From Escherichia coli (GTDB taxonomy: Bacteria > Pseudomonadota > Gammaproteobacteria > Enterobacterales > Enterobacteriaceae): 64,000 nt of DNA. Shown here one piece after another: positions 2,495 through 60,478 of the stretch (position 1 is its first letter; each line of letters begins with the position of its first letter). The notes under the pieces were generated by a model. It was given only the letters and a program-made list of their open reading frames with translations, searched no databases and was not told the origin of the DNA. The stretch is from the NCBI RefSeq assembly GCF_041248615.1, contig NZ_CP158426.1; one strand, written 5' to 3'. The position numbers were made by a program, and so were the translations under genes.

Positions 2495-3490
2495 TTACGC
2501 CAGTACGCCTATTGCCAGCGCACGATCGATAAAACGAAATATCAGCTCCAGCTGGGAGCCATACTTCTCTTCAAATGCCACGGTATCCGCATGCAGCTCG
2601 TCGTGATGCTTTCTGCACAAAGGCAACACAAAAAGGTCATGCGCTTTTGTACCCATTCCCCCCTGACCGTGGCCTATCAGGTGGTGGGGATCATCAGCAG
2701 GTTTTCCACAACATGCGCACGGCTGCGTCTTAACCCAGCGCGTGTACTTTTCATTAACCCAGCGGTGACGTTTTGGGCGTAACATAAAAGACTCCGGCGA
2801 CTCCGGATCCACTTTCAGCGCCAGCACCTTTTTCGCCTTATCCTGGATGATGCTGGTGGCAGGAACCGAAGGCACAAGGTCACTTTCCCGGGTAACAGAC
2901 GGCACAACAGGCTTCGGTAATCTCAGTGCCTTACGGGCTGCACTTTCCGGTAAGGCATCCGCCAGATCATTACGAATCAGCCACCAGCACAGTTCCGGCA
3001 TTGTCACAACATGACTGTCATCAAAACCGAGATCCCGACGCACAACAGACAACACCCAGCGGGCACAGTTATCCGTTGCCATTGATTCCAGCCGTTCCGT
3101 GAACTGATCGCGCAGCTGGTTATCGCAGTGCCAGCACAGACGGATTGCGCCCGGAGCGTGTCGCATTGTTGTCATATTCTCGCTGTGCCAGTCGGAATGA
3201 GGCCACTGGCAGCCTTTTTCACGAAGTAACCAGCTTTCAAGACATTCCACCCCACCAGCACGACGGATCACTGCCTCATTGCGGAACACGGCCCGAACGG
3301 CAGGATCATCCGCCAGCGGTTGTGATGCCGCCGGAACGGCACCACTGGCGAAAGATGAATAACGTTCCGGCTCAGGCTCCAGCAGGACACGCCCCTGCAT
3401 AAACAAGGGCATCAGCTCTGAACCTGGTCTGAACAATACGATCCCCATACGCGGGGCAATTTCAGGGGTCAGTAGTGCTCTCACGGTCAC
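2495..3490 (-). CDS. DUF968 (YdfU-like) prophage protein
   Basis: C-terminal CACCGKPADDPHHLIGHGQGGMGTKAHDLFVLPLCRKHHDELH motif, typical of DUF968. Confidence 0.75.
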   Translation of the reverse strand: MTVRALLTPEIAPRMGIVLFRPGSELMPLFMQGRVLLEPEPERYSSFASGAVPAASQPLADDPAVRAVFRNEAVIRRAGGVECLESWLLREKGCQWPHSDWHSENMTTMRHAPGAIRLCWHCDNQLRDQFTERLESMATDNCARWVLSVVRRDLGFDDSHVVTMPELCWWLIRNDLADALPESAARKALRLPKPVVPSVTRESDLVPSVPATSIIQDKAKKVLALKVDPESPESFMLRPKRHRWVNEKYTRWVKTQPCACCGKPADDPHHLIGHGQGGMGTKAHDLFVLPLCRKHHDELHADTVAFEEKYGSQLELIFRFIDRALAIGVLA

Positions 3491-3491
3491 C

Positions 3492-4307
3492 TCAATGAAC
3501 GGTATCGAGCAGCTTTAACAGCTCAGGGAATCGGGATTCGAAGAAATGCGGCTGCGTCTCGCGCGGATTTGCAGGACTGGTGATGTTCTTGCCGAACATG
3601 CAGCCTTTCGCGGTCAGCGACCAGAATTTTTTGATGTTGTTAATCGCGGTACGACTGTATCGTTCGCGTTGTTCAACGATCCCCAGCTTCGCCATCTGGT
3701 GATATGCCTGATTAGCCGTCAGGCGGATACCATACTGCTTCAGCAGTGCACTCAGCGACAGCGTAGGGCGGCTTGAACCATCTGGCGCATCAGCAGGTGC
3801 ATCAATGGCATAGATCGGCATAAGTTCAGGAAGACCAGCTACCTTTGATAATTTCTGGTATGCACCAAGTTTCGAGGAGTTTGACAGATTTAGAGTCTTT
3901 GCTGCTGATTCAAGCAGAATGACCCCGGATTTAATTTTGTCGGATGTGGTTTCTTCTGGTGATGAATTATGAAGCGCATCAAAAGTACGTATCACTTTTA
4001 AGCTGAATGCCGGGCTGATCCACATTGCATATGCATAGACCAGCTCTTTACAGACATACGTCCCACCATTGCGCCCCTGAATGGTGATGACAGGAATACT
4101 ACGGGAATCTCCCGTAGTTTCTTCTTCCAATAATTCCACAAGAGCCTTCGTTTCAGGACGACGCATAAACTCGTGAACTTCCAGCGAACGGGAGGAGCGA
4201 TTCTCACCAGCGGCAAGAAGAGCAGCTTTCTGAAGGTCGTTAAGACAGTAGTTAGATTCGAAGTACTGGCGCACAGAAACGCCATCAATTACAAGCAACT
4301 GATTCAT
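3492..4307 (-). CDS. KilA-N domain DNA-binding protein (271 aa from ATG-4307)
   Basis: GTYVCKELVYAYAMWISPAFSLKVIRTFDAL is KilA-N-like. GGAG SD before ATG-4307. Confidence 0.7.
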   Translation of the reverse strand: MNQLLVIDGVSVRQYFESNYCLNDLQKAALLAAGENRSSRSLEVHEFMRRPETKALVELLEEETTGDSRSIPVITIQGRNGGTYVCKELVYAYAMWISPAFSLKVIRTFDALHNSSPEETTSDKIKSGVILLESAAKTLNLSNSSKLGAYQKLSKVAGLPELMPIYAIDAPADAPDGSSRPTLSLSALLKQYGIRLTANQAYHQMAKLGIVEQRERYSRTAINNIKKFWSLTAKGCMFGKNITSPANPRETQPHFFESRFPELLKLLDTVH

Positions 4308-7793: not shown

Positions 7794-7928
7794 AGCTTTC
7801 TCCTTTTTTGGTAGTTAAGTTGTTACGAGCTGCAAGAATACAACATTAACAACTTTTACCACAACTTTTAGGTGTTGGAAAGCTAAAACATAAAGTTGTA
7901 ACCTCATCAAAAAAGAGAGGGATATGTT
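7794..7928. promoter_or_regulatory. OR-type immunity control region (divergent cro and cI promoters, operators)
   Basis: Multiple copies of ACAACTT/AAGTTGT (7817, 7849, 7861, 7892). The motif ccacaact...aggtgtt is shared with the region at 9541-9600. Confidence 0.65.
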
Positions 7929-8615
7929 GTGAAAACACTGGCAGAACGATTAAAGATAGGTAGAGAGAAAGCTGGCATGAGCCAAGCTCAACTAGCTGAA
8001 AAAATTGGACTTTCACAACAATCTGTAGCCAAAATAGAGAATGGCGAAACTCTACAACCGCGCAAAATTAAAGAAATTGCAAAAGTTTTAGGTGTATCAC
8101 AAAAGTGGTTACAACTTGGTATTGAAGACAACGCATCCATACCTGATCTTGTTGTAAAAGAAGCAGAAAGCACCGCATTAGACCCCGATATTTTCGTAAA
8201 CATTCCTGTTTTAGATGTCGAGTTATCGGCAGGTAACGGATGTCTGGCTGAAATAGTTGAATCAGCTATTGACTGGTTTCCGTTAAGAAGAGCAGATTTG
8301 AGAAAATCTGGCGTATGTGCATCTAATGCCAAGATCGTACAAATATGGGGGAACAGTTTATTACCGGTTCTCAATAATGGAGATCTTGTTGCCGTTGATA
8401 TTTCTCAAACCGTTCCTATTCGTGATGGCGATCTTTATGCCGTACGAGATGGTGTATTGCTAAGGGTTAAAATACTTATCAACTTACCTGACGGTGGCTT
8501 GATTCTTAGAAGCTTCAACAAAGATGAGTACCCAGATGAAATACTCACCTTTGAAGATAGACGAGCCAGAATTCATGTTATAGGTAGGGTATTCTGGTCA
8601 TCGCGAACTTGGTAA
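7929..8615 (+). CDS. CI-type prophage repressor (XRE HTH + S24 LexA-like peptidase, 228 aa, GTG start)
   Basis: HTH MSQAQLAEKIGLSQQSVAKIENG. Ala-Gly cleavage site (LSAGNG). GNSLLP Ser and a downstream Lys (LRVKIL). Confidence 0.9.
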   Translation: MKTLAERLKIGREKAGMSQAQLAEKIGLSQQSVAKIENGETLQPRKIKEIAKVLGVSQKWLQLGIEDNASIPDLVVKEAESTALDPDIFVNIPVLDVELSAGNGCLAEIVESAIDWFPLRRADLRKSGVCASNAKIVQIWGNSLLPVLNNGDLVAVDISQTVPIRDGDLYAVRDGVLLRVKILINLPDGGLILRSFNKDEYPDEILTFEDRRARIHVIGRVFWSSRTW

Positions 8616-9488
8616 TGCATCGAAAAGCATTTCTTCAGAAATAATTTTAAGTTTTGCACCATTATCATCCCTATAAGATATAGCCTTTTCGATCTTCCTT
8701 CCGTGACTAGAGAATTTCCAATCACGGGAGGAAAGCGTCCCAATTACTAAAAAATCCAACTTTTGAGTAATTCCACTACTGATGTTCCCACCAGCATTTT
8801 TAATCAAATTTTCAACTACGGCTCTCTTTCCTGCAACAAAAGTGCCTGTAAGACAATAGGTTTTACCCTCTAACTCTATCGAAGCCCCTACATCAATAGG
8901 CAGCCTGGTCGCCAAACCATCCACCACCCCACTTTCCAAGTCACATCCTGTGAAGTCTACTAATGCCTTATGTAGAGTTAAACTCTCATCTTCAGTAATA
9001 ACACCATCTTTAAGAATTTCCTTTACAAGTGCATAAAGTTTTTTTCCTGGGTAGTTGTTCTTCAAAGCTCCATTTTGCTCAAGCCACCAATTAAGATATC
9101 TTATTTCTTCTTGAGTTAAGTTCCGATCAGCAATTAATCCTTTACATAGTCCATTAAGTAAATGGACATCTACATCCTTGGAGTAAAAATCAATTTCAGG
9201 GATATCAAGAATTTCCCTCTGTATTTGGAGAAGACTATTTTTAAGGTCATCACGTTCTTCTGATGTGATTATTCCATCCGCAAGAATATCCGACACCCGT
9301 GCAGATAGACTTTTTATAACTCCATTATTGATAATCTGCTTTGCTTCAAGTAACCATGTATCTAAGTAAAGAACCTCCTCTTCACGGACAACTCCATCTG
9401 CAATGATTCCATCAATGATGCTAATCAAGTTAGCAAATAACTTGTCCCGGTTCTGTGTGTAATTAAAAGCGTAAAGCGCGTCTTCCAT
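8598..9488 (-). CDS. BRCT-domain protein with four TerB-like DG-[VI]-I/V-x-x-E-E repeats (296 aa from ATG-9488)
   Basis: C-terminal GKTYCLTGTFVAGKRAVVENLIKNAGGNISSGITQKLDFLVIG...W is the BRCT pattern. Strong AAAGGAGG SD. AT-rich by eye. Convergent with cI, with an 18-nt overlap. Confidence 0.75.
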   Translation of the reverse strand: MEDALYAFNYTQNRDKLFANLISIIDGIIADGVVREEEVLYLDTWLLEAKQIINNGVIKSLSARVSDILADGIITSEERDDLKNSLLQIQREILDIPEIDFYSKDVDVHLLNGLCKGLIADRNLTQEEIRYLNWWLEQNGALKNNYPGKKLYALVKEILKDGVITEDESLTLHKALVDFTGCDLESGVVDGLATRLPIDVGASIELEGKTYCLTGTFVAGKRAVVENLIKNAGGNISSGITQKLDFLVIGTLSSRDWKFSSHGRKIEKAISYRDDNGAKLKIISEEMLFDALPSSR

Positions 9489-9540
9489 ACAACCTCCTTT
9501 TTTTGATAATCCTTGCACTCCTTGGCTACTCGTTCAAACC

Positions 9541-9600
9541 ACATAAAGTTGTTGACAACATTCAAAACCACAACTAAATTACAACTTAAAGGTGTTAAGA
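9541..9600 (+). promoter_or_regulatory. pL-type early-left promoter with OL operators
   Basis: TTGACA (9552-9557), 17 nt, TAAATT (9575-9580). Overlapped by AAGTTGTtgACAAC and ACAACTaaattACAACTT operator-like motifs. Confidence 0.65.
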
Positions 9601-9712
9601 CAACGAACAGGCAGGACGCCCACGAAGTAGCCGCTTGGGGCATATGAAGTCCAGGATGATTCGTTGAGTCATGTTGTGCCACTAGGCACTCATGTTAAAG
9701 CAGGTGTATGAA

Positions 9713-9988
9713 ATGAAAGTCCAGATTTTAAACAATAACTGTGAAGTCGTTTGGTCATACGACATAGCCGCCCCTGTAGATCAGAGCGGCGATAGCTGGA
9801 CCAATGGGAAACATCAGATTATGGCTGGAGTTGTGTTCTCTTTACGCCGTGCTTTGGAACAGGCTGAAGTATTTCCATCAGACCCTGAATGGAAATGGCC
9901 TTTTTCTATTTGTCCAAATTCGGAGAGCACATTTCAGAAAATTGGTCAGAAAGTCGCACTCGAAGAGCATCAGCCAACTGTTTCCTGA
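9713..9988 (+). CDS. Hypothetical protein, first ORF of the pL operon (91 aa from ATG-9713)
   Basis: AGGTG SD before the ATG. Not Arg-rich, so not N-like. Confidence 0.45.
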   Translation: MKVQILNNNCEVVWSYDIAAPVDQSGDSWTNGKHQIMAGVVFSLRRALEQAEVFPSDPEWKWPFSICPNSESTFQKIGQKVALEEHQPTVS

Positions 9989-10151
9989 TTTTTTCAGGTA
10001 ACTCGTCGGCATCGCAGAAACAACAACGCTCGATCATGTTGAAAGCCGATTCGTAGAACTGTTTCTGCTGAGTGTCGCTGAGACAGGAAAAGAGCGACGT
10101 TACGATGATTTTATTAATTGCATTATCAAATTCTTTTTCATCAAAAGTCAT
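9906..10151 (-). CDS. Hypothetical 81-aa protein antisense to the pL operon
   Basis: AAGGA SD before the ATG. Helical-looking sequence. Its 3' end overlaps ORF 9713-9988 by 83 nt. Confidence 0.45.
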   Translation of the reverse strand: MTFDEKEFDNAINKIIVTSLFSCLSDTQQKQFYESAFNMIERCCFCDADELPEKIRKQLADALRVRLSDQFSEMCSPNLDK

Positions 10152-10260
10152 TTGATTTTCCTTTTATGTATACGGGCTTAAAAGGATACCACCGAGCCTG
10201 AAGTGGTGAAAAGACAGGCACATAACAGCTAAGTATTTTCAACCAAAGAGAATCCTTAGC

Positions 10261-10384
10261 GTTGTGGTGAATGCGGCTCAGCGCACGCGGGTTAAGGTTG
10301 AGGCTGACAGTCGACCTTCTGTGGATACCCACCCGCCTGGTGTGCAACCTTCGCCAGGCACCGGGAGGCACCCGGCACCACAAC
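10261..10384 (+). ncRNA. Candidate structured RNA domain (multi-helix junction closed by a 9-bp helix)
   Basis: gttgtggtg (10261-10269) pairs perfectly with caccacaac (10376-10384). Internal hairpins: aaggt/acctt, cctgg/ccagg, ccggg/cccgg, gcgggt/acccgc. All six frames give only overlapping low-quality ORFs. Confidence 0.45.
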
Positions 10385-10404
10385 TTTATGCTGTGTGTAG
10401 TCTT

Positions 10405-10451
10405 GGCGGTACCAGTTTGTACACTTGCTTCCGGCTGGTACCGCTCTTTTT
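10405..10451 (+). terminator. Intrinsic terminator hairpin; the 5' arm resembles the DicF sRNA core
   Basis: ggcggtaccag-19 nt-ctggtaccgct, followed by CTTTTT. TTGGCGGTAcCAGTTT compares with DicF TTGGCGGTATCAGTTT, recalled from memory. Confidence 0.5.
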
Positions 10452-10453
10452 AC

Positions 10454-10538
10454 AAAACAGAGAAGAGCATCACCGGACGACGGGCTCATAACCCAATCCA
10501 TCCGGGCGGCTGCCACCGCAGGTGTTCTTCTCTGTTTT
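10454..10538 (+). ncRNA. Second candidate structured RNA domain closed by a perfect 13-bp helix
   Basis: aaaacagagaaga (10454-10466) pairs with tcttctctgtttt (10526-10538). Internal hairpins: ccgga/tccgg and gcgg/ccgc. Confidence 0.4.
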
Positions 10539-10588
10539 GTGGAGAAACCAACCGACCTTGCAGGGTCGATATGATGAGGAGCAGCAAA

Positions 10589-10951
10589 ATGGCTAGCGAA
10601 CGCAGTACTGATGTGCAGGCATTTATCGGGGAGCTGGACGGCGGCGTATTTGAAACCAAAATCGGCGCAGTTCTCAGTGAAGTCGCTTCCGGTGTTATGA
10701 ACACGAAAACCAAAGGTAAGGTCTCACTCAACCTGGAAATCGAACCATTTGATGAGAACCGTGTGAAAATCAAACACAAACTCTCATATGTTCGCCCGAC
10801 TAACCGCGGGAAAATTTCCGAAGAAGACACCACCGAAACGCCGATGTATGTCAATCGCGGTGGTCGCCTGACTATTCTGCAGGAAGACCAGGGACAGTTA
10901 CTGACTCTTGCCGGTGAACCTGACGGAAAACTCCGCGCAGCAGGTCGTTAA
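10589..10951 (+). CDS. YfdP-like early-left protein (120 aa)
   Basis: GAGGAG SD before ATG-10589. Followed by yfdQ/R/S-like genes, as in CPS-53/KplE1. Confidence 0.6.
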   Translation: MASERSTDVQAFIGELDGGVFETKIGAVLSEVASGVMNTKTKGKVSLNLEIEPFDENRVKIKHKLSYVRPTNRGKISEEDTTETPMYVNRGGRLTILQEDQGQLLTLAGEPDGKLRAAGR

Positions 10952-11044
10952 TATCGTTTTTAATTAACTGATTATTTATCTCATCACTGGGTGATGCTGC
11001 CAACTTACTGATTTAGTGTATGATGGTGTTTTTGAGGTGCTCCA

Positions 11045-11320
11045 GTGGCTTCTGTTTCTATCAGCTGTCCCTCCTGTTCAGCTACTGACGGGGTGGTGCG
11101 TAACGGCAAAAGCACCGCCGGACATCAGCGCTATCTCTGCTCTCACTGCCGTAAAACATGGCAACTGCAGTTCACTTACACCGCTTCTCAACCCGGTACG
11201 CACCAGAAAATCATTGATATGGCCATGAATGGCGTTGGATGCCGGGCAACCGCCCGCATTATGGGCGTTGGCCTCAACACGATTTTCCGCCATTTAAAAA
11301 ACTCAGGCCGCAGTCGGTAA
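11045..11320 (+). CDS. insA: IS1 InsA
   Basis: [43 protein letters not shown]... Confidence 0.95.
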
Positions 11321-11742
11321 CCTCGCGCATACAGCCGGGCAGTGACGTCATCGTCTGCGCGGAAATGGACGAACAGTGGGGATACGTCGGGGCTAAATCG
11401 CGCCAGCGCTGGCTGTTTTACGCGTATGACAGGCTCCGGAAGACGGTTGTTGCGCACGTATTCGGTGAACGCACTATGGCGACGCTGGGGCGTCTTATGA
11501 GCCTGCTGTCACCCTTTGACGTGGTGATATGGATGACGGATGGCTGGCCGCTGTATGAATCCCGCCTGAAGGGAAAGCTGCACGTAATCAGCAAGCGATA
11601 TACGCAGCGAATTGAGCGGCATAACCTGAATCTGAGGCAGCACCTGGCACGGCTGGGACGGAAGTCGCTGTCGTTCTCAAAATCGGTGGAGCTGCATGAC
11701 AAAGTCATCGGGCATTATCTGAACATAAAACACTATCAATAA
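11239..11742 (+). CDS. insB: IS1 InsB' frame (expressed as InsAB' by a -1 frameshift)
   Basis: A6C slippery run at 11296-11302. The rest of the frame reads as the canonical InsB sequence. Confidence 0.95.
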
Positions 11743-22404: not shown

Positions 22405-22672
<268 letters not shown>

Positions 22673-22780: not shown

Positions 22781-22867
22781 GCGAAGGTGGCGGAATTGGT
22801 AGACGCGCTAGCTTCAGGTGTTAGTGTCCTTACGGACGTGGGGGTTCAAGTCCCCCCCCTCGCACCA
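22781..22867 (+). tRNA. leuQ: tRNA-Leu(CAG)
   Basis: 87-nt gcgaaggtggcggaattggtagacgcg...ggttcaagtcccccccctcgcacca. Anticodon loop cttCAGgtg. Confidence 0.97.
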
Positions 22868-22895
22868 AAAACCACGTTGATATTGCTCGCACTGG

Positions 22896-22982
22896 GCGAA
22901 GGTGGCGGAATTGGTAGACGCGCTAGCTTCAGGTGTTAGTGTCCTTACGGACGTGGGGGTTCAAGTCCCCCCCCTCGCACCA
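22896..22982 (+). tRNA. leuP: tRNA-Leu(CAG)
   Basis: Identical 87-nt copy. Confidence 0.97.
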
Positions 22983-23016
22983 AACGAGGCGATATCAAAA
23001 AAAGTAAGATGACTGT

Positions 23017-23103
23017 GCGAAGGTGGCGGAATTGGTAGACGCGCTAGCTTCAGGTGTTAGTGTCCTTACGGACGTGGGGGTTCAAGTCCCCCCCCTCGCA
23101 CCA
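23017..23103 (+). tRNA. leuV: tRNA-Leu(CAG)
   Basis: Identical 87-nt copy. Confidence 0.97.
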
Positions 23104-60394: not shown

Positions 60395-60399
60395 ATTTA

Positions 60400-60478
60400 G
60401 CGCGGTGCGGATGTGCGCCAACACACCCACACCGCTCATCACAATCCCTATTTCACGAGAATAGTAATCATGACTGAC
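60400..60478 (-). ncRNA. symR: Expected SymR antisense sRNA overlapping the symE 5' UTR and start codon (approximate ends)
   Basis: Inferred from the K-12 symE/SymR arrangement. The ends cannot be determined from sequence alone. Confidence 0.4.

Follow-up and report, generated by a model that had tools for sequence, protein, structure and literature searches.

Positions 10255-10560 of a 64,000-nucleotide (nt) stretch of Escherichia coli DNA (NCBI RefSeq assembly GCF_041248615.1, contig NZ_CP158426.1; the whole stretch is called the window here) encode a non-coding, structured RNA on the plus strand. The setting is an SfV/CPS-53-like lambdoid prophage in the E. coli chromosome. We interpret the segment, with a probability of roughly 0.65, as a non-coding RNA cassette of the early-left (pL) operon, a mosaic relative of the Qin dicF locus and of mEp460-type sRNA-17. 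Modules 1 and 2 of the cassette (10261-10451) constitute a small-RNA (sRNA) gene of ~191 nt, of the DicF/sRNA-17/STnc100 kind, and module 3 is a long helix whose interior resembles the anticodon arm of initiator tRNA.

The plus strand of 10230-10590 folds with a minimum free energy of −154 kcal/mol (z = −6.41), and none of 100 shuffled sequences folded as well; the minus strand gave z = −3.53. The original prediction, made from the letters of the sequence, had noted unusually perfect helices and a GC content above that of the surroundings, and both observations were borne out. The z-scores of the modules taken separately are −3.1 (10261-10384), −3.2 (10385-10456) and −7.95 (10452-10541), and the GC content is 0.53-0.55 in the region, compared with 0.40-0.46 upstream and about 0.49-0.50 downstream. 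Compensatory changes were found in all three modules across relatives from more than 15 enterobacterial genera. In the counts given below phylogeny is ignored, and many of the homologues were gathered with conserved motifs, so that the apparent invariance of those motifs is inflated. The plus strand is favoured by G-U pairs in the helices, by the U-tract and by the orientation of sRNA-17 in rapid amplification of cDNA ends (RACE).

As had also been predicted, the region is covered solely by mutually overlapping open reading frames (ORFs); we count six: 10141-10383(−), 10264-10491(+), 10271-10951(+), 10292-10516(−), 10425-10574(+) and 10486-10854(−). Substitutions in the RNA region relative to ST64B, LLS and Kp4866-6 are distributed over the three codon positions as 20/23/22, 12/13/10 and 27/28/32, respectively, compared with 31/72/24 in yfdP, and indels of 1, 2, 10 and 20 nt between relatives break any frame in the RNA region. 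Searches of Pfam and NCBIfam gave no match for the overlapping ORFs, orf33, an antisense 81-amino-acid ORF or YfdP. We judge the region to be non-coding because it shows no codon periodicity, carries frame-breaking indels, has helices that covary in homologues (27 and 20 sequences, see below) and matches no protein family.

A small-RNA gene with a pseudoknotted 5′ domain

Module 1 is a 124-nt domain of the STnc100 type, designated the J-domain, that consists of helices P1 to P5 (Table 1). Of the module as originally predicted, the 9-bp closing helix P1 is present and covaries, whereas the inner hairpins are conserved only in part. The hairpins at 10294-10318 and 10321-10332, which appear in the minimum-free-energy fold, are absent in phiES15 and RCS47 and compete with P3 and a pseudoknot, and were rejected. 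Among 20 non-redundant relatives, 95.3% of the cells in P1, P2 and P5 are paired (22-46% in slid controls), with six pairs in P1 and P5 changing on both sides. P3 retains pairing through sequence changes (GCGGGU/ACCCGC, elsewhere GCGGGG/CCCCGU), as does P4. The pseudoknot joins arm a to arm a′ in the P4 loop, and the arms are complementary in each of five sequence versions: AAGGUUG/CAACCUU in the window and ST64B, AAGGCUG/CAGCCUU in phiES15, UGGUUAU/AUAACCA in RCS47, UGGUUAA/UUAACCA in sequence L237 and CAGUUAA/UUAACUG in the Qin type.

The STnc100-type domain occupies three different places in phage genomes. It lies ahead of the seed and terminator in the window and phiES15, past the terminator and 20-45 nt before dicB-like genes in Qin-like phages, and upstream of a tciA-like gene in P1-like phages. 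It holds invariant 25-nt stretches, a degree of sequence conservation that suggests a specific partner. The acceptor-like P1 stacked on the 5-bp P5, together with the 4-bp P2, may be features of a factor-binding RNA, in which case the domain would not be an sRNA scaffold alone.

The 5′ domain is followed by a single-stranded linker with the putative seed UUUAUGCUGUGUGUAGUCUU, the AU-rich 5′ part of which is a candidate RNase E site in our model. Next comes the hairpin that the original prediction had described as module 2 with its CTTTTT tail; the stem is present, followed by C and five U residues, and this intrinsic terminator is the predicted 3′ end of the ~191-nt RNA. The seed UGCUGUGUGUAGUCUU is kept in phiNP, LLS, phiES15, Kp4866-6, Citrobacter and Mixta despite differing terminators, and other relatives carry different seeds at the same place, also on the same terminator. 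A search of the 64-kb window for the seed complement AAGACTACACACAGCA, allowing up to three mismatches, returned only the gene itself and thus no target.

The RNA, which could not originally be assigned to a family, has a near-threshold match to STnc100 (RF02076). An Rfam scan at gathering thresholds reported nothing within the region because this match (43.8 bits, E = 4.4e-8, model positions 1-206 at 10239-10453 on the plus strand) falls 3.2 bits short of the gathering score of 47 bits. The segment has the STnc100 consensus architecture, that is, a closing helix, inner hairpins, a CCGGGAGGCACCCGG hairpin beside the 3′ strand of P1 and a 3′ terminator, and the same model matches the domains of Qin, phiES15 and RCS47 at 34-41 bits. 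The DicF model (RF00039) scored 18.9 bits at 10392-10446 (E = 0.2; threshold 48 bits), with the alignment confined to the terminator stem; authentic DicF scores 76.7 bits. Matches to miRNA, hairpin-ribozyme, ftsZ-DE and cyano-S1 models, all with E ≥ 0.8, were taken as chance. Among STnc100 genes, EDL933 has 11 copies expressed at hundreds to thousands of reads per kilobase per million (RPKM), one of them confirmed by Northern blotting (PMC5331693). A 2026 preprint ties STnc100 to the PasD sRNAs, and PasD binds Hfq in RIL-seq (sequencing of ligated RNA pairs; bioRxiv 10.64898/2026.05.13.724894).

The nearest relative with mapped ends is sRNA-17 of the mEp460-like prophage in E. coli K1 RS218, which is 193 nt long by 5′/3′ RACE and was detected by Northern blotting (PMC7719688). 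Its full-length primers match CGTTGTGGTGAATGCG and the complement of GGCTGGTACCGCTCTTTT and thereby place it at 3355-3549 of mEp460 (L134). When 10260-10452 of the window was compared with the mEp460 copy (193 and 195 nt), the first 15 nt (CGUUGUGGUGAAUGC) and the last 54 nt were identical. The two RNAs share a closing helix and a terminator that is 100% identical, and both are located at one locus upstream of yfdP, with an identical module 3 downstream. The interior of the 5′ domain of sRNA-17 differs, being of type III with the P5 loop AGAUCAGCA in place of AGGCA, and the mEp460 copy has no STnc100 match at E ≤ 0.05. The seeds also differ (AGCCACUGCUU in sRNA-17, UUUAUGCUGUGUGUAGUCU in the window). 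From the identical ends and locus we conclude that the window encodes an allele of the same gene, of ~191 nt.

The authors of the sRNA-17 study treated it as a novel stand-alone gene with an ArcA-bound promoter and made no link to DicF or STnc100 (PMC7719688). Replacement of the gene by a cat cassette raised yfdP expression 95-fold, and yfdP was listed among the trans targets (PMC7719688). This rise looks more simply like cis read-through from the cassette into the adjacent gene. The pKD3-derived cassette in the sRNA-17 mutant presumably faces yfdP.

An sRNA precursor like that of the Qin dicF region was among the original suggestions and proved essentially right. DicF exists as a 190-nt form with an RNase III-made 5′ end and an RNase E-dependent 53-nt form (bioRxiv 10.1101/2023.04.14.536235). 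In the ydfC-dicB interval of K-12 Qin, a helix is followed by a first domain, which GUUGUGGC/GCUGCAAC closes, then by DicF and the DicF terminator, and lastly by a second domain. Counting 190 nt back from the DicF terminator shows that long DicF starts at the GUUGUGGC domain, which lies directly upstream of dicF and is related to the domain described here through its GUUGUGG.../...CAAC closing helix. The second domain, between dicF and dicB, is of the STnc100 type (34.4 bits) and shares the invariant GGUGAAUGCGGCUGAGCGCACGCGG and CCUGGAGGCACCAGGCAC. The window has the setting of a dicBF-type locus, namely a repressor-controlled early-left operon and a structured domain closed by GUUGUGG/CCACAAC, as well as features suited to processing by RNases III and E (the 20-bp helix of module 3 and the AU-rich linker). 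In several IMG/VR prophages, modules 2 and 3 are identical to those of the window, and a Qin-type first domain replaces module 1. There are at least four types of 5′ domain, all closed by GUUGUGG.../...CCACAAC and combined with varied seeds and terminators, and this swapping of domains, seeds and terminators shows the cassette to be a mosaic.

The long helix and its anticodon-arm-like core

Module 3 was originally described as a perfect 13-bp helix (10454-10466/10526-10538) that encloses two hairpins. These elements are present, but the helix is longer than described, with 20 bp of which the 13 make up the inner part; its 5′ strand abuts the terminator U-tract. Among 27 distinct sequences, 95.8% of the cells of module 3 are paired (35-53% in slid controls), and ten pairs change on both sides; the 20-bp helix alone has 94.4% of cells paired and six such pairs. 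The 20-bp helix is a probable RNase III substrate, given its length and, by analogy, the fact that RNase III makes the 5′ end of long DicF within a similar helix.

Within the long helix, a P-stem that covaries (CCGGA/UCCGG, CCGGG/CCCGG, CCAGG/CCUGG, and CCUGU/ACAGG in P1-like phages) encloses an invariant core with a GGG/CCC stem and a 7-nt loop. This stem-loop, GGGCUCAUAACCC, is identical over 14 nt, including the three G-C pairs, to the anticodon arm of K-12 metZ tRNA-fMet (CGGGCTCATAACCC). It has the 7-nt loop, U33, the anticodon, a purine at position 37 and three G-C pairs, although position 37 is U in ST64B and Kp4866-6. The second hairpin is variable; in relatives its loop region measures between about 12 and about 50 nt, and the total length of module 3 ranges from 104 to 131 nt, with differences that in both cases are not multiples of three.

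A motif scan with one genome per species found the core in 24 Enterobacterales species. In Klebsiella, Raoultella and Pantoea phages it lies in the late region downstream of Q, 6-10 nt after tRNA-Asn, -Phe, -Thr or -Arg; there it is closed by an acceptor-like stem, in Klebsiella and Raoultella GGCCUG...CAGGCC, and followed by ACCA or GCCA. The window has no acceptor stem or 3′ NCCA, and the 20-bp helix stands in that place. A covariance model built from the early-operon copies detects the late-region copies with rough E-values of about 1e-6 to 1e-8. Two diverged copies in P1-like phages, with the loops UUCAUAU and GUCAUAU and the covarying stem CCUGU/ACAGG, were likewise detected by this model, without the help of the motif. 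Both precede a GUGAAUGC domain start and keep CAU, the U33 and A37 positions and the three G-C pairs. In the P1-like RCS47 (L133) they lie at 2644-2756 and 2929-3007 on the plus strand, just downstream of tRNA-Asn and tRNA-Thr and antisense under the annotated coding sequences plp and upl; these two ORFs may be mis-annotations of the RNA region.

ARAGORN reported no tRNA at 9500-11000 or at the late-region copies, and no Rfam family, the tRNA model included, covers module 3 or its relatives. We found no description of module 3 elements in the open-access literature, and the anticodon-arm look-alike is a conserved element that has apparently gone undescribed. Other long helices lie directly upstream of the 5′ domain in Stx2a_1447 (L135, ~3225-3355), phiNP (L124, ~2640-2790) and Kp4866-6 (L131, ~2665-2795). 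These enclose two hairpins with a perfect tRNA T-loop consensus, such as GUCCG-UUCGAUU-CGGAC, and have no Rfam or ARAGORN match. Along with module 3, they suggest that the leaders of N-less lambdoid phages hold a family of long helices with tRNA pieces inside.

Pairing of the anticodon-like loop with the downstream start site (GGGUUAAACCAUGAG in LLS) was also considered. The A37U change is matched by GGGUAA in Kp4866-6 but mismatched in ST64B, the opposite mismatch occurs in Citrobacter (L137), and the start site in the window is unrelated; we dropped the idea because there is no consistent covariation. The 3′ strands of the long helix in relatives carry GUGCUCUUU (in the window GUGUUCUU, at 10521-10530), which is boxA-like yet base-paired. 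The resemblance of GUGUUCUU and GUGCUCUU to boxA was judged against what we take to be the rrn/lambda boxA consensus.

Operon setting and proposed fate of the transcript

The coordinates of the features are collected in Table 1. Over the query, the window is 100% identical to strain NRZ14408, and 2780 of 5426 complete E. coli genomes (about half) carry a match to the RNA region. The order on the plus strand is cI-orf33-RNA region-yfdP-yfdQ-yfdR...int, with the integrase gene, on the minus strand, after several further genes beyond yfdR. The repeats beside the predicted promoter are copies of those in the cI-cro gap (7840-7900). We therefore take the promoter to be pL and count the region as lying inside the pL operon, in agreement with its originally proposed location. 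The BRCT gene has no counterpart at this position in SfV and may be a moron or a defence insert.

Table 1. Positions of the RNA cassette and its surroundings in the window.
Feature	Position	Strand	Basis or remark
cI-like repressor gene	7929-8615	+	
BRCT-domain gene, inserted between repressor gene and pL	8598-9518	−	
Operator-like repeats around predicted pL	9541-9552, 9555-9568, 9580-9595		
Predicted early-left promoter pL (TTGACA, 17-nt spacer, TAAATT)	9552-9580	+	Scan; 10/12 positions match
orf33	9713-9988	+	
Leader hairpin ACCACCGAGCCUGAAGUGGU, then GAAAAGACAGGCAC	10188-10207 (element to 10222)	+	Sequence comparison
5′ structured domain (J-domain, STnc100 type), 124 nt, helices P1-P5	10261-10384	+	Rfam, fold, covariation
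P1, 9 bp	10261-10269/10376-10384	+	Covaries
P2, 4 bp	10272-10275/10282-10285	+	Comparison
P3	10287-10292/10331-10336	+	Comparison
Pseudoknot arm a, AAGGUUG	10294-10300	+	Complementary to P4 loop
P4	10337-10342/10352-10357	+	Comparison
Pseudoknot arm a′, CAACCUU, within P4 loop	10345-10351	+	Complementary to arm a
P5, 5 bp, invariant AGGCA loop	10361-10365/10371-10375	+	Covaries
Single-stranded linker, putative seed, 20 nt	10385-10404	+	Unpaired in fold
Intrinsic terminator, stem 10405-10417/10433-10445, then C + U5 (10446-10451)	10405-10451	+	Fold
Long helix, 5′ strand, 20 bp	10452-10471	+	Covariation, z = −7.95
P-stem	10473-10477/10501-10505	+	Covaries
Invariant core CGAC-GGG-CUCAUAA-CCC-AAUCCA, inside P-stem	within 10473-10505	+	
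Anticodon-arm-like GGG/CCC stem and 7-nt loop	10482-10484/10492-10494, loop 10485-10491	+	
Variable hairpin 2, GCGG-CUGCCA-CCGC	10506-10519	+	Two pairs change on both sides
Long helix, 3′ strand, boxA-like GUGUUCUU (GUGCUCUU in relatives)	10521-10540	+	Covariation
Small hairpin CGACC-UUGCAG-GGUCG in 5′ untranslated region of yfdP	10553-10568	+	Fold; relatives GGCGG-NNNCA-GCCGCC
yfdP coding sequence, first gene after RNA cassette (Shine-Dalgarno GAGGAG, 10577-10582)	10589-10951	+	PGAP
Other Rfam matches	516-955 (−), 22448-22641 (−), 22781-23100 (+), 60399-60475 (−)		

The leader element ACCACCGAGCCUGAAGUGGU/GAAAAGACAGGCAC is kept directly 3′ of pL in LLS, phiES15 and the IMG/VR contig L189; it includes GCCUGAAG, which is reminiscent of lambda boxB. 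The antisense 81-amino-acid ORF (9906-10151, minus strand) has a plausible Shine-Dalgarno sequence and overlaps the 3′ end of orf33. Only orf33 of the two was called by PGAP and in the SfV annotation, and the terminator-like minus-strand hairpin at 10207-10188 is upstream, not downstream, of the antisense ORF. PGAP labels 10264-10574 as a pseudogene, "hypothetical protein, frameshifted". K-12 CPS-53 lacks the RNA cassette and shares only the last ~30 nt before yfdP. An IS1 element (11045-11742) is inserted between yfdP and yfdQ, and since it interrupts the early-left operon, the genes beyond it may be uncoupled from pL. The other Rfam matches above threshold in the window are a cspA-type thermoregulator (the leader of a prophage cspB), two naRNA4 repeats, SymR and three 84-nt tRNA genes. 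mEp460 has a C4 antisense RNA (83.6 bits) at 824-1012 of the minus strand of L134, beside isrK (67 bits) and near the antirepressor gene.

For sibling alleles, the RNA ends, accumulation and processing by RNases III and E have been demonstrated (PMC7719688; bioRxiv 10.1101/2023.04.14.536235). For the allele in the window, the analysis shows that the region is non-coding, that its structures covary and that it is homologous to STnc100, sRNA-17 and the dicF region, whereas we infer that it is processed and acts in trans on targets, as well as whatever the 5′ domain and the tRNA-like core may do. Transcripts would start at pL (about 9580) and cross orf33, whereupon the nascent RNA would fold into the pseudoknotted 5′ domain. 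Most transcripts would then stop at the terminator to give the ~191-nt RNA. This long form would probably be trimmed by RNase E in the AU-rich linker, as DicF is from 190 to 53 nt, leaving an RNA of ~60 nt with the seed UGCUGUGUGUAGUCUU and the terminator hairpin, which would pair with targets in trans, probably aided by Hfq. In read-through transcripts the 20-bp helix would form, and an RNase III cut there would set the 3′ end of the sRNA, detach the yfdP mRNA and free a core of ~50-70 nt that carries the copy of the initiator-tRNA anticodon arm.

Several observations weigh against this interpretation. Expression is documented only for relatives (sRNA-17 and STnc100 copies). The promoter scan gave no promoter-like site between pL and the 5′ domain, and for that reason a repressed lysogen may contain little of the RNA. 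With just five U residues, the U-tract is marginal for an Hfq-dependent sRNA, and the search of the 64-kb window gave no target, the complement of the seed being confined to the gene itself. The domain is preceded by no long RNase III-type helix but only by an imperfect hairpin of ~10 bp (10230-10258), and its 5′ end may therefore arise otherwise than in Qin or mEp460. The gathering scores of STnc100 and DicF were both missed. In addition, the 25-nt invariant stretches, the pseudoknot and the placement after the terminator in Qin suggest that the domain has a function of its own, and the sRNA-scaffold model leaves that specific function unexplained.

Alternative explanations and comparison with known systems

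One could envision alternative scenarios for the segment. One possibility, which we regard as quite improbable, is that the 5′ domain is a cis-acting element of processive antitermination, either put-like or working with Nus factors through the boxA-like GUGCUCUU, that replaces N and enables RNA polymerase to read through the terminator at 10405-10451 and later ones. An RNA that modifies RNA polymerase in the manner of put had been the first suggestion of the original prediction, prompted by the apparent lack of N; indeed, left-operon annotations show no N-like gene in this prophage, SfV, ST64B, mEp460 or LLS. The domain precedes a strong terminator between pL and yfdP...xis-int, boxA-like sequences occur in the 3′ strands of the long helices, and the mEp collection has been described as Nus-dependent coliphages (PMC11893012). 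However, the put-like suggestion gained no support: the similarity to putL is insignificant (best blastn match 22 nt, E = 0.28, in the tiny search space of the HK022 pL-nun interval), the element lies ~680 nt downstream of the predicted promoter, and the boxA-like motif is buried in the 20-bp helix. Furthermore, sRNA-17 accumulates as an RNA terminated directly after the homologous domain (PMC7719688), the STnc100-type domain of Qin lies past the terminator, and canonical STnc100 copies reside in Q-controlled late regions (PMC12370729). Another scenario is that the 5′ domain is a cis-regulatory element of the 5′ untranslated region, riboswitch-like or a leader bound by a protein or the ribosome, that controls the terminator or the following ribosome-binding site, with the ~190-nt RNA a by-product like terminated riboswitch leaders. 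We think that this is rather unlikely. The ligand or binding factor cannot be named, no mutually exclusive terminator/antiterminator pairing was seen, no riboswitch family in Rfam matched, and the seed is either conserved or exchanged as a whole, in the manner of base-pairing sRNAs. What such an element would explain is the fold, a pseudoknotted junction of several helices whose joining nucleotides are invariant and whose peripheral hairpins vary freely, and the position of the domain, after which comes either an intrinsic terminator (in the window, phiES15 and canonical STnc100) or, at a distance of 20-45 nt, the start codon of dicB-like, tciA-like or other early genes.

A third scenario, compatible with the interpretation as an sRNA cassette, is that module 3 acts mainly as a tRNA mimic, a phage copy of the initiator-tRNA anticodon arm that serves as a decoy or regulator. 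We consider this idea doubtful. The identity over 14 nt includes the three G-C pairs, U33-CAU-A37 is kept even in the P1-like copies found without the motif, the core follows tRNA arrays with an acceptor-like stem and NCCA in other phages, and it is invariant while every surrounding helix covaries. In addition, enteric VapC toxins cut tRNA-fMet in this arm (PMC4705866). On the other hand, the element is recognised neither by ARAGORN nor by the Rfam tRNA model, has no D arm and no T-loop consensus, and carries U at position 37 in ST64B and Kp4866-6. Most examples were fetched by the motif itself, which builds in part of the invariance, and the mimicry is read from likeness of sequence and not from function. 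That the core is framed either by an RNase III-type helix or by tRNA-processing signals suggests that the core itself is a product and not filler. With a low probability, the long-helix element would represent a widespread and so far undescribed type of phage RNA that mimics the anticodon arm of initiator tRNA as a free-standing molecule. It would be excised by RNase III in SfV-, ST64B- and mEp460-like early-left operons and in P1-like phages, and freed by tRNA-processing enzymes in Klebsiella and Pantoea late operons. Candidate readers of the mimic are VapC toxins that cleave tRNA-fMet, IF3 with the 30S P site, and MetRS. Finally, a protein might be encoded, for example by a 106-codon open extension of the yfdP frame (10271-10588) or by the frameshifted ORF of PGAP (10264-10574). 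Upstream of yfdP its frame does stay open, over 106 codons in the window and in SfV and over 126 in ST64B, and PGAP gives the region its pseudogene label, but in LLS and phiNP this frame is already closed 1-5 codons ahead of the start. This explanation is extremely unlikely given the even spread of substitutions over codon positions (against 31/72/24 in yfdP), the indels of 1, 2, 10 and 20 nt, the length differences in module 3, the lack of Pfam or NCBIfam matches and the compensatory changes in the RNA helices.

The interpretation as a mosaic sRNA cassette has several consequences. Long DicF, sRNA-17 and STnc100/PasD, three separately named RNAs, would be mosaic alleles of one cassette with interchangeable 5′ domains, seeds and terminators, which explains why sRNA-17 looked "novel". 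The mosaic cassette also cautions against reading cis effects on yfdP as trans regulation, in a region that annotation pipelines label as a hypothetical or frameshifted protein. Other phages have the invariant anticodon-arm copy beside genuine tRNA genes; should it prove to be a functional tRNA mimic, it would be a new kind of phage RNA in contest with host systems that target tRNA or translation initiation.

Among known systems, HK022 putL and putR share with the RNA described here the situation of a structured RNA in the early operon of an N-less lambdoid phage, upstream of terminators. They differ from it in sequence, size, helix number and promoter distance, put being ~70 nt with two stems (PMC9378689) whereas the window domain has 124 nt, five helices and a pseudoknot. 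The RNA here also appears to terminate right after the domain, unlike put (PMC7719688). With STnc100 the RNA shares a 5′ side that has GGUGAAU..., the CCGGGAGGCACCCGG hairpin adjoining the closing helix, a terminator ~20-60 nt later, and a prophage-borne gene with multiple copies in E. coli. Canonical STnc100 genes reside in late regions, such as the one that lies 75 nt downstream of stx2 (PMC12370729), whereas the window has its copy in the early-left operon. Further differences concern the seed and the first of the inner hairpins, and the pseudoknot is not in the Rfam consensus structure.

For module 3, the lambda N-leader and sib RNase III sites provide a parallel, since they too are long perfect helices that the pL transcript forms shortly before the first early gene. 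Such a helix is suited to the uncoupling of upstream RNA from downstream mRNA by RNase III, as our model proposes here. Unlike them, module 3 has a conserved sequence-specific insert and abuts an sRNA terminator. The tRNA-like domains of tmRNA and YrlA likewise have a long helix of distant strands that encloses hairpins resembling tRNA pieces, but they mimic the acceptor/T-arm whereas module 3 mimics the anticodon arm, and the YrlA and tRNA models did not match module 3. Phage tRNA arrays offer a further comparison, as the late-region version of the core lies 6-10 nt behind true tRNAs and has an NCCA end.

A close counterpart of the whole cassette is the Qin dicF locus. The two differ in the order of their domains, Qin having the STnc100-type domain past the terminator and a different domain type before it, whereas in the window the STnc100-type domain comes before the terminator. 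Qin also lacks the tRNA-like module 3 (no match in a covariance-model search of L128), the seeds of the two are unrelated, and the downstream gene is dicB in Qin and yfdP in the window. Both occupy the same place on the map, after small ORFs and before host-takeover genes, and both have the same layout of a GUUGUGG.../...CCACAAC domain, a single-stranded stretch, an intrinsic terminator and a long helix. Their terminator stems are similar (UUGGCGGUAYCAG), and the predicted long form of ~191 nt compares with 190 nt for DicF.

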